Virus record (IMG/VR): IMGVR_UViG_2700989509_000029
Origin: a virus
Taxonomy: Duplodnaviria; Heunggongvirae; Uroviricota; Caudoviricetes
Length of the DNA stretch: 20,646 nucleotides
Reading direction: 5' to 3' (one strand)
This document shows, one piece after another, positions 18,001 to 20,646 of the stretch. Positions within the stretch are counted from its first letter, which is position 1; each line of letters starts with the position of its first letter. A program made the position numbers.

Positions 18001-20646
18001 AAGGCCAGATGTGGAAAGGCCCCGGAAAACATTTCTGTTTAACCGAGGCCCTAACATATCTACCTTAAGCAAGTGATAGGTTAGCGCCTCTCCAACAAAG
18101 GAGCAAGCGCTATGTCGCAAAAATCGCTTACGGCCATCACGTTCTGCGTGACGGTAATCCTCATCATCTGGATGCTGCACGGTTCGCTGTGTGAAATACG
18201 GATGAGCTTCTGGGGAGCGGAGTTTGCGGCGTTCTTACAGTGTAAGCAGTAAGGAAACCGCGACGGGGGAGTAATCCCCCGTCAATCGGTTGCCAGGGTA
18301 AGGTCGATAAGGCACCCTATCTCACAGACATGAACAACAAGCCCGTAGCGTAAAAACTGCGGGTTTTCTTTTTGGTATCCCCATCCATAAGCAATAGGCA
18401 TAACAGATCGATGCAATAAATCCGATCGATAAAAACGATCGATTTGTTATCATATCGGCAGCAGTAACCACACAAGAGGTGCCGCAAATGACGCAAAATG
18501 TACGATGCAAAAATTGCAACAAACTACTTGCCCGCGCCTCATTTCACTACATTGAAATAAAATGTCCGCGCTGCAAAACACTTAACCAGATAACGAGAGC
18601 CATCGAGCACCCCACACACATGAGGAGTTATGACCGTGGGGATCGCAATCCAGCACCAACCAGCACATACACCGGAACACACTAAGGTTTATCAGACTGA
18701 CAATGCCATGCTCTGTCGTGGGAATGCGCTGGAAATATTGCCGCTGATTGAGCCAGAAAGCATTGATGCCTTAATCACTGACCCGCCTTACAGTTCGGGG
18801 GCGACACACAAGGCCGGACGCACCAACCAGGGCAGCCATGCAAAATATCTGAACGGCGAGAACCTTCACCGCTTTGATGGGTTCGCGGGTGAAAACATGG
18901 ACGCCCGTTCGTGGGCTTACTGGACACAATTATGGATGGCACAGGCACACCGCGCAGTCAGGCCGGGCGGTTATGCCCTGGTATTTACTGACTGGCGACA
19001 ACTACCAGCTTTAACCGATGCGTTTCAGGCCAGTGGCTTTACATGGCGCGGCATTATTGCGTGGAACAAAGGGAGGGGGTCACGAACACCACATACCGGG
19101 TATTTCCGGCATCAGTGCGAATACATCGTCTGGGGCAGCAAAGGCCATTTAGATAAATCGCCTTCGGGACCGTTCGACGGCTGCATGACGTTCCCGGTTA
19201 TCCCGTCAAAGAAAATGCACCCGACCGGAAAACCAGAAGAACTAATGGCGGAACTGGTCAGGACTGTGAATAGTGGCGGAACAGTCCTTGATCCTTTTAT
19301 GGGGTCAGGGACAACGGGTGTGGCTGCACTGAAAGCAGGACGCAAATTTATTGGTATAGAAACCAGTGATCATTATTTTGATGTAGCAACACAACGGCTC
19401 AAAACGGCGATCGAACCATAAGACAAAGCCCGCAATGTTGCGGGCTTACTCTACCTCTCGAAAATGTGGTCACTGCGTGGACATACGCTGATACAAATCC
19501 TTTTATATCAATAAATTAAATCTTTGTTTTTTTCATCAACAAGGATTTTCACGTTTGTGTTACCTGTATGAGACGAGAGTTAACCGGACAAGTGTGCCAT
19601 AATCTCGCGGCCAGGCATACTTGCGAAGATTTCAGGTATAAGGATACGTAATGATACAACCTATTTCCGGCCCTCCTCCTGGGCAACCACCAGGTCAGGG
19701 AGATAACCTGCCGTCTGGCGCGGGCAATCAGCCTTTATCCAGTCAGCAACGTACTTCGCTGGAAAGCTTAATGACGAAAGTGACCTCACTGACGCAACAG
19801 CAAAGAGCAGAACTGTGGGCGGGTATCAGGCACGATATTGGTCTGTCGGGAGATTCACCGCTGCTTTCGCGTCACTTCCCTGCCGCTGAACACAACCTGG
19901 CGCAACGTCTGCTGGCCGCGCAAAAAAGCCATTCTGCCCGCCAGCTTTTAGCGCAATTAGGGGAGTATTTACGTCTGGGGAATAATCGTCAGGCGGTCAC
20001 GGATTATATCCGTCATAACTTTGGTCAGACGCCGCTGAATCAGCTCTCACCGGAGCAATTAAAAACCATTCTCACCCTGTTGCAGGAAGGGAAGATGGTT
20101 ATTCCGCAACCGCAGCAGCGCGAGGCGACCGACCGTCCTTTATTACCGGCGGAGCACAATGCGCTTAAACAGCTGGTGACCAAACTTGCGGCGGCAACGG
20201 GGGAACCCAGCAAACAGATCTGGCAATCGATGCTGGAACTTTCCGGGGTGAAAGATGGCGAGTTAATTCCAGCGAAACTGTTTAACCATCTGGTGACCTG
20301 GCTACAGGCGCGTCAGACGCTAAGCCAGCAAAATACGCCGACACTGGAATCACTACAGATGGCGCTAAAACAACCTTTAGATGCCAGTGAACTGGCAGCG
20401 TTATCGGCGTATATCCAGCAAAAATATGGTCTTTCTGCGCAATCATCGCTTTCTTCTGCCCAGGCCGAGGATATTCTTAATCAGCTTTATCAACGGCGGG
20501 TTAAAGGGATTGATCCGCGTGATATGCAACCGCTGCTTAATCCTTTTCCACCGATGATGGACACGTTGCAAAATATGGCAACGCGTCCCGCGCTGTGGAT
20601 ACTGTTAGTCGCGATTATCCTGATGCTGGTCTGGCTGGTTCGTTAG

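Follow-up and report, generated by a model that had tools for sequence, protein, structure and literature searches.

Why does a P2-like prophage carry three closely spaced GATC sites directly upstream of a com-like gene and a DNA methyltransferase? Could these sites amount to the switch that governs the modification gene of phage Mu, placed in another phage and in front of another enzyme? Control of a gene through the methylation state of its promoter has its textbook example in the Mu mom operon. In PMC7549136 (citing Sun & Hattman 1996) and PMC3378877, methylation by Dam at three GATC sites within 43 bp 5' of mom is described as preventing binding of OxyR; PMC3378877 describes the mom promoter (Pmom) as weak and dependent on the activator C. 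The sites considered here lie in a stretch of 20,646 nucleotides (IMG/VR virus record IMGVR_UViG_2700989509_000029; hereafter the window, meaning the whole stretch of DNA that was analyzed). This DNA forms the right end of an Escherichia coli prophage that is P2-like, with the order ogr-hok-com-methyltransferase-attR. In the account that we consider probable, reduced OxyR would bind the unmethylated operator and block the com promoter, Dam methylation would exclude OxyR, and Com would unlock translation of the methyltransferase. The operator would share its ancestry with the three-GATC region of Mu, and in the window it would have become joined to a core promoter, that of a com-methyltransferase moron.

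Is the clustering more than chance, and what is its unit? The original prediction, made from this DNA without database searches, had pointed to three GATCGAT copies within 38 bp, some 45–80 bp 5' of com, and an exact scan agrees: the copies start at 18406, 18424 and 18437, with spacings of 18 and 13 bp, and occur nowhere else in the window. Relative to the com ATG at 18488 they start at −82, −64 and −51, the third ending at −45. Three bare GATC in 38 bp are unremarkable, with P ~0.11 when the window's 47 GATC are placed at random and 0.27 in Markov simulations; across the window GATC is rarer than expected (47 vs 73 +/− 9). Three GATCGAT in 38 bp were seen in 0/3000 simulated windows, and two copies in 0.8%. 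The 7-mer, or the ATCGAT palindrome within it, had been put forward as the relevant unit, and here the relatives disagree. GATCAAT, GATCGTC and GATCGGT are found at equivalent positions in relatives of the window cassette, and because the bases after GATC vary in this way, it is GATC, the Dam site, that is the conserved unit. The spacing signature ATAG-N8-GATC-N14-GATC-N9-GATC has a single occurrence in the window, at 18394.

How close is the resemblance to Mu? In the Mu sequence (L001; L numbers denote loci), GATC is found at 1160, 1178 and 1191, the same 18/13 spacing as in the window and with ATAG likewise 8 nt upstream, so that the three-GATC mom promoter invoked by the original prediction is matched down to its spacing. 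The two operators align ungapped from ATAG to GATCGATT, beside homologous com genes. The gene described earlier as com-like does match Pfam Zn_ribbon_Com (E = 9.5e-12), and its product is 60% identical to Mu Com over 42 residues. In Mu, com overlaps the modification gene by ~50 nt, and a CCCAC...GUGGG hairpin holds the Shine-Dalgarno sequence and start codon of that gene; the arrangement in the window is homologous. Judged from these alignments, the GATC cluster of the window is a homologue of the Mu mom control region, beyond analogy.

To follow the element through its relatives, we used 80 com loci (one genome per species), contigs encoding methyltransferase homologues, and 80 viral contigs. 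Among the 80 com loci, GATC clustering 5' of com is confined to enterobacterial loci (L002, L004, L007 and, in part, L003) and Mu itself. The signature ATAG-N8-GATC-N14-GATC-N9-GATC is common to the window, the Salmonella and Yersinia cassettes, Mu, the Mu-like phage L007 and the E. coli gene agn43, with two deviations: ATGG for ATAG in L007 and N15 for N14 in agn43. The 12 GATC positions are shared without exception by the window, Yersinia, Mu and L007, against an identity of 35–72% over the remaining 40; outside GATC, 22/40 operator positions of Mu and 29/40 of Yersinia agree with the window. The same pattern emerges at short range. In 17 full-length haplotypes of the window type, 1 of 12 GATC columns is variable, as are 0/4 in ATAG and 0/6 in the −10 hexamer, against 27/49 (55%) elsewhere. 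Taken by itself, GATC gives a Fisher p of 0.004 for this constraint; GATC, ATAG and the −10 together give 4e-5.

Some natural variants depart from this pattern. L096 has GAAC for GATC at site II, the sole natural point loss seen. In L003 a 31-bp deletion collapses the three repeats into one, with a single GATC left, and L122–L124 show the same 31-bp collapse with AATC, so that zero GATC remain. Each of these variants still has the TGnTATCAT promoter as well as com and the methyltransferase. (Although labelled Vagococcus, L003 looks enterobacterial, and is probably a contaminant contig.) The downstream gene varies as well. The com cassettes of enteric phages form several families. In family A, that of the window, three GATC precede an N6/N4 methylase; family B has two GATC, 13 apart, and Mom; family C has two GATC, 13 apart, followed by Mom, a C5 methylase (L004) or an N6/N4 methylase (L086); family D is Mu-like with a degenerate third site, and carries Mom. 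The single com locus L163 has no GATC and a D12-class methylase. That the unit of operator, com and hairpin precedes different enzymes speaks against a tie between the GATC sites and the specificity of the enzyme encoded in the window.

Do the conserved positions read as an OxyR operator? The scan used the Toledano tetramer consensus, ATAGnTnnnAnCTAT-N7-ATAGnTnnnAnCTAT, as quoted in PMC2909390. The best two matches of the whole window fall in the cluster, with 15/20 at 18394 and 18403, and a further match of 14/20 at 18407 also lies inside it; a match of at least 15/20 is reached in 1% of simulated windows. Experimentally proven operators score lower on this consensus (agn43 14/20, Mu mom 13/20). 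Overlapping registers at 18394, 18403, 18407 and 18416 score 13–15/20, and the comparative data favor a reading as two predicted OxyR half-sites 31 bp apart. Half-site 1 would have the invariant ATAG as its left element and GATC I in its right element; GATC II and III, 13 nt apart, bound half-site 2, which is the layout of a GATC pair within one half-site known from gtr. The rigid 18/13 spacing follows, because GATC I, II and III sit in three of the four recognition elements. Reduced OxyR is said, in work by Toledano and colleagues from 1994, to contact two pairs of adjacent major grooves with one extra helical turn between the pairs. The earlier suggestion of a promoter under Dam and OxyR control like that of Mu mom therefore gains support from three sides, namely the homology to Mu, the invariance of GATC and the OxyR consensus matches, all of them properties of the sequence.

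Sites outside com cassettes provide a further view of the same operator. When the viral collection was scanned for the 16 fixed bases in ATAG-N8-GATC-N14-GATC-N9-GATC, at least 121 matches came back. Among the matches listed, com follows in 26/121, and the signature stands without com in 95/121, representing 71 distinct sequences. In these 71 operators, again among the matches listed, half-site 1 (positions 1–15) has T6 in 86% and A10 in 90%, and half-site 2 (ATCGnTnnnAnCGAT, positions 32–46) has T6 in 85%, A10 in 87% and C12 in 93%. T6, A10 and C12 are absent from the search pattern and yet are conserved, while the flanks and the centre are unconstrained. The non-com contexts among the matches listed, within IMG/VR loci L172–L291, include tail-fibre-like genes (L183, L184, L174, L224), a P2-type sheath gene (L181), umuDC-like genes (L202) and a 254-amino acid (aa) open reading frame (ORF) without known function (L213); a Megablast of the non-com operator L183 against E. 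coli genomes gave no match. A distant search in phages showed that HK022/HK97-like lambdoid phages carry a near-identical operator ~85 nt 5' of cor, a superinfection exclusion gene, in the form GATC-N9-GATC-N14-GATC and with CAAT for CTAT (phage mEp043, NC_019706, L292 2380–2620, minus strand). Sites with three GATC in 18/13 spacing may, by these patterns, represent an unrecognised family of phage morons under Dam/OxyR control.

Which promoter would such an operator control? The intrinsic terminator downstream of hok/sok ends that unit and insulates the com operon, and com therefore needs a promoter of its own. The only sigma-70-like match between 17900 and 19700 is TCGATA-16-TATCAT, which places the predicted transcription start near 18460 and the predicted operator at ~−66 to −21, half-site 2 covering the −35 and the spacer. 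TG and TATCAT are invariant in relatives, and the 'n' between them takes all four bases. In four diverged cassettes a −10-like hexamer (TATCAT, TATCAT, TATAAT, TATACT) stands exactly 11 nt past the last GATC. No Ogr-type site (TGT-N12-ACA, as in P2 late promoters) was found 5' of com, the only nearby match lying inside com. The Mu segment with the C-binding site, a T6 run and the weak −10 is absent from the window, where it appears as a gap in the alignment to Mu; a AACCACAC remnant of the Mu −35 region abuts the com Shine-Dalgarno sequence and is part of the com leader. The variants that have lost the operator keep TGnTATCAT, and the promoter therefore looks self-sufficient. Since the C-dependent promoter is absent and the operator sits on a predicted extended −10 promoter, the regulatory logic would be nearer to that of agn43 or gtr than to that of Mu. 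It appears that in the P2-type version an activator-dependent promoter has been replaced by a constitutive-looking one under the operator.

Downstream of the promoter, a second control seems to operate on the mRNA. We favor the com start at ATG 18488 over GTG 18479, because the N-terminus then aligns with Mu Com and because of the position of the Shine-Dalgarno sequence; the annotation of phage Chuche starts com at GTG 18479, and phage annotators label the gene 'gpCom'. E. coli RefSeq names the product 'Com family DNA-binding transcriptional regulator', whereas in the literature Mu Com is a translational activator of mom. By homology, the Com of the window would likewise be a translational activator of the downstream gene. 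Around the methyltransferase start, the predicted mRNA fold is a hairpin that encloses the methyltransferase Shine-Dalgarno sequence GAGGAG (18622–27), an AUG at 18630 and, in its 3' arm, an in-frame GUG at 18636. The counterpart in Mu, CCCAC-GGAGAAACAUU-GUGGG, holds the annotated mom Shine-Dalgarno sequence and GUG start. GUG 18636 corresponds to that start, and it is probably the true start of the methyltransferase as well, because the Shine-Dalgarno sequence lies 8 nt from it and only 2 nt from AUG 18630. The hairpin motif occurs 122–128 nt past the com start in 86 enteric com cassettes, as compared to 3/632 control segments, and it is kept before genes for this methyltransferase, for Mom and for a C5-cytosine methylase alike. 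The hairpin is the presumed target of Com-dependent translational unlocking.

How might these elements work together? An OxyR tetramer, in the reduced form of unstressed cells, would bind the two predicted half-sites, three of its four recognition elements coinciding with GATC I, II and III. Bound OxyR would cover the −35 hexamer and the spacer of the predicted promoter and cause repression. Dam methylation of the three GATC would prevent binding and free the promoter, and bound OxyR would in turn shield the sites from Dam. Transcription would then depend on the methylation history of that DNA copy. The outcome could be a heritable ON/OFF state in lysogens, or derepression once replicating phage genomes outnumber OxyR. 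A second lock would act on the mRNA: Com, made from the same transcript, would open the hairpin over the methyltransferase Shine-Dalgarno sequence and start codon, as in Mu. Somewhat further from the data, and with clearly less confidence than in the OxyR/Dam/Com account itself, we entertain the possibility that a mom-type operator on a self-sufficient promoter acts as an agn43-like bistable switch or a genome-copy-counting switch, by which host Dam and OxyR gate a phage methyltransferase.

Several points weigh against this account. The operator is dispensable for persistence of the cassette, because L096, L003 and L122–L124 have lost it. The promoter scan alone is not significant, with 1 match against 2.2 expected in shuffles, and the start is only predicted. 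The exact OxyR contacts are uncertain, because several registers score alike and the consensus is degenerate and AT-rich, and half-site 1 of the window is without the consensus T6. A resident prophage in a dam+ host is normally fully methylated, so that OxyR would rarely bind unless an unmethylated state is inherited. Finally, the sign of regulation is not established, because LysR-type regulators near a −35 can activate or repress.

Could the cluster be read without OxyR at all? Closely spaced GATC are a known substrate of SeqA, and at IS10 pIN and dnaA expression is coupled to passage of the replication fork. Dam methylation could thus act directly on the promoter, or via SeqA. Two of the sites fall within the predicted promoter, GATC II inside the −35 and GATC III in the spacer, where methylation could alter binding of RNA polymerase; SeqA could sequester the hemimethylated cluster after replication and couple expression to fork passage; and the GATC tetranucleotides are the most conserved feature of the region. 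We nevertheless regard this explanation as unlikely. It leaves unexplained the invariant ATAG exactly 8 nt 5' of GATC I, the conservation of T6, A10 and C12 in 71 independent operators among the matches listed, and a spacing shared with two operators that were experimentally shown to bind OxyR, those of Mu mom and agn43.

Many promoters are activated by OxyR, which is of the LysR type, from sites that abut the −35. Might it bind here but activate, as at opvAB or from the upstream OxyR(AB) position of P22 gtr, so that the unmethylated promoter is ON and the methylated one OFF? At gtr the outcome depends on which of two overlapping positions is filled (PMC2909390), and the window, too, offers several registers. 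Half-site 2, however, reaches to ~−21, well into the spacer, and the promoter-overlapping position of gtr represses. OxyR is also the repressor at the homologous Mu element, and the natural variants without operator retain an apparently self-sufficient TGnTATCAT promoter. Activation by OxyR is, in our estimate, quite improbable.

A reader encoded by the phage has still less in its favor, and we consider it very improbable. The methyltransferase might regulate itself through GATC or ATCGAT, as the original prediction had proposed, or Com might act as a DNA-binding regulator, as its automatic annotation says. The nearest solved relatives of the methyltransferase include DpnA-like adenine methylases, and an enzyme as non-specific as those linked to Com in Mu-like prophages (PMC3299994) could methylate GATC and lock the switch ON. 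Yet it is GATC alone, and not the 7-mer or the palindrome, that is conserved, and Mu Com is described as a translational activator on mom mRNA (PMC3299994). Autoregulation by the downstream enzyme is not needed either, as the operator also stands before Mom, a C5-cytosine methylase, cor and agn43, and these have no enzyme in common. Least probable of all is that the cluster is a non-functional relic of a Mu-type com cassette captured by a P2-like phage: the AACCACAC remnant in the com leader does show that the region was rearranged, and operator-loss variants do persist in nature, but GATC, ATAG and the −10 are strongly constrained while 55% of background columns vary, and the grammar is retained in E. 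coli, Salmonella and Yersinia cassettes.

Table 1. Genes, signals and predicted sites in the prophage's right end, in window positions.
Feature	Position	Strand	Basis or remarks
gpD	15211–16332		
low-GC PIN-domain moron	16505–17575		
ogr	17660–17920		
hok/sok module	~17965–18252		
intrinsic terminator, 10-bp stem and T-run	18339–18375	+	terminator scan; kept in relatives L002, L003, L082
predicted OxyR half-site 1 (ATAGGCATAACAGAT)	18394–18408	+	invariant ATAG forms the left element; GATC I is overlapped by the right one
GATC I (Dam site)	18406–18409	.	~−54 from predicted transcription start
GATC II (Dam site)	18424–18427	.	~−36; overlaps left element of half-site 2 and first bases of −35 hexamer
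predicted OxyR half-site 2 (ATCGATAAAAACGAT)	18425–18439	+	half-site scan: 8/10 vs ATAGnTnnnAnCTAT
predicted sigma-70 promoter	18426–18453	+	−35 TCGATA (18426–31), 16-nt spacer, TG-extended −10 TGtTATCAT (18445–53)
GATC III (Dam site)	18437–18440	.	~−23; within promoter spacer; overlaps right element of half-site 2
com Shine-Dalgarno AAGAGG	18474–18479	+	8 nt 5' of ATG
com homologue, 65-aa zinc-ribbon	18488–18685	+	Pfam PF10122, E = 9.5e-12; overlaps methyltransferase ORF by 56 nt
mRNA hairpin CCCCAC-N20-GUGGGG	18610–18641	+	RNA fold; Mu alignment
beta-class N6/N4 DNA methyltransferase, DPPY motif, 263 aa	18630–19421	+	PF01555, E = 3.4e-33
GC-rich hairpin directly 3' of methyltransferase stop codon	19426–19447	.	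terminator scan

Is the cassette a genuine part of the phage? Comparison with the empty site of strain RM13514 (L296, 32515–32800) shows that identity to host DNA, at the pdxB-flk junction, sets in at 19530, a position equivalent to the first ~23 nt of pdxB coding sequence; because identity begins at this position, the att core apparently overlaps the 5' end of pdxB. Phage Chuche, which has been isolated and has a complete genome, shows the same order, D-ogr-hok-com-methyltransferase-integrase, and the com-methyltransferase cassette is therefore real phage cargo between ogr and attP. The GC-rich hairpin behind the methyltransferase likely marks the end of the cassette. The non-coding GATC region was found in 173/5,426 complete E. 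coli genomes (~3%). In the O145:H28 strains with published methylomes (RM13516, RM13514), the pdxB-flk site is empty and the prophage absent. Between ogr and the com operon lies a toxin-antitoxin module of the hok/sok type, with a Hok/Gef family ORF at 18112–18252 and a sok match to Rfam RF01794 at 17965–18122 that, with E = 4e-9, stays under the gathering score; the order hok-com-methyltransferase also occurs in Yersinia kristensenii (L082). The 356-aa ORF between gpD and ogr contains a PIN_12 domain (E = 1.3e-20) and has 34% GC, as compared to 52% for the prophage. It looks like a separately acquired moron and is possibly a defence gene.

What can be said of the enzyme itself? The nearest solved relatives of the methyltransferase are DpnA-like and CcrM adenine methylases; with Pfam, these indicate only its class. 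It has no similarity to Mu Mom, and the downstream gene is not Mom (PF25680). Among the 120 relatives listed, none has a specific name. M.EcoGII, of 349 aa, is a different enzyme. The ST131 and O145 methylome papers do not cover this methyltransferase, and a survey of undermethylated GATC in Salmonella (PMC7708049) does not include the locus. Two close relatives lack com and the GATC operator (L084/L085 and L088/L089): one, 80% identical, directly follows a 109-aa Ogr-like ORF in another E. coli P2-like prophage, and one, 62% identical, sits within a lysis cassette, that of a Mu-like prophage in Salmonella. Because such close relatives do without com and operator, the methyltransferase is evidently deployed under several regulatory regimes.

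Why should this arrangement matter? The control module, consisting of the three-GATC operator, com and the start-codon hairpin, is portable: it is found in P2-like phages of E. coli, Salmonella and Yersinia and is coupled to at least three unrelated DNA-modification enzymes. If the proposed control by OxyR and Dam is right, host Dam and OxyR would switch a phage methyltransferase that ~170/5,426 complete E. coli genomes carry, a natural case of one methylation system gating another. Were the operator, in addition, to act as the bistable or copy-counting switch entertained above, lysogens would fall into groups that differ in methylome, and not all phage progeny would be equally protected from restriction. 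On that reading the element would also belong to a largely unrecognised family of three-GATC (18/13) OxyR operators in front of diverse phage morons, namely Mom, methylases of the C5 and N6 kinds, the exclusion protein Cor and tail-fibre genes. The fixed 18/13 grammar is a simple signature with which to find further phage genes under Dam/OxyR control, and the natural operator-loss variants (L096, L003, L122–L124) are ready-made experimental controls.

How, then, does the cassette compare with systems already described? Unlike the window, with its beta-class N6/N4 methyltransferase in a P2-like phage, Mu is a transposable phage and its enzyme is Mom. The order in Mu is operator, C-binding site, a poor −35 (ACCACA), T-run, −10 and com, a segment that the window does without between operator and com leader. 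The Mu operator lies at ~−57 to −100 of an activator-dependent promoter, whereas that of the window lies at ~−66 to −21 of a predicted TG-extended −10 promoter.

Like the window, agn43 (flu), a proven Dam/OxyR switch, has ATAG-N8-GATC followed by two GATC 13 nt apart. OxyR scores are 14/20 in agn43 and 15/20 in the window, no dedicated activator is apparent in either, and in both, OxyR bound to the operator would stand in the way of RNA polymerase, in the window by prediction. The two differ in the spacing between GATC I and II (19 in agn43, 18 in the window) and in the position of the operator, which in agn43 begins at the annotated start of the flu leader RNA (isrC), downstream of the promoter, and in the window overlaps the −35 and the spacer. 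In addition, agn43 controls an autotransporter adhesin and is without a Com layer, and phase variation is demonstrated there and hypothesised for the window. The GATC II–III segment of agn43 (gatcGTTTATATCgatcGATAAGCT; L090, the flu leader of E. coli K-12) agrees at 23/25 positions with the operator of com type C (gatcGTTTTTATCgatcGATAAGTT, L004/L156), which occurs in Citrobacter and other phages. This likeness points to a common ancestor, or to the operator having been exchanged between modification cassettes of phages and an adhesin gene borne by a prophage.

The gtr genes of P22 and Salmonella (Broadbent et al. 2010, PMC2909390) are, like the cassette of the window, a phage-borne moron with GATC pairs 13 bp apart in a single half-site. 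There, methylation abolishes binding of OxyR, and one OxyR position overlaps the promoter, with GATC at −46 and −33; alternative OxyR positions activate or repress, and the promoter-overlapping one represses (PMC2909390). In contrast to the three GATC and two predicted half-sites 31 bp apart of the window, gtr contains three half-sites, and its four GATC form two pairs that are ~50 bp apart.

A fourth comparison concerns the pairing of com with an adenine methylase. In the Mu-like prophages that carry FluMu Hin1523, Hia5 and Pnm1 Nma1821, a com homologue lies directly 5' of an adenine methyltransferase that replaces mom, and the methylase gene was suggested to bear Com-type regulatory elements at its 5' end (Drozdz et al. 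2012, PMC3299994). As in the window, com stands immediately before the methyltransferase. These prophages belong to Haemophilus and Neisseria, and unlike the window their upstream regions are without a GATC cluster; non-specific activity was shown for their enzymes. A BLASTP comparison of the window methyltransferase with the ORFs 3' of com in H. influenzae L050 and L080 gave no match (E < 1e-3); the L050 ORF is without a Pfam match, and both are presumed from position to be Hin1523 orthologues. A literature search on a P2-like com-methyltransferase cassette, or on its rewired promoter, found no description in the papers that it covered. Already known are the control of mom by Dam and OxyR and, in Mu-like prophages, methylases linked to com (PMC3299994). 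What appears to be new, on comparison with these systems, is the same operator and the same translational gate in another phage, in front of another enzyme and under another promoter logic.

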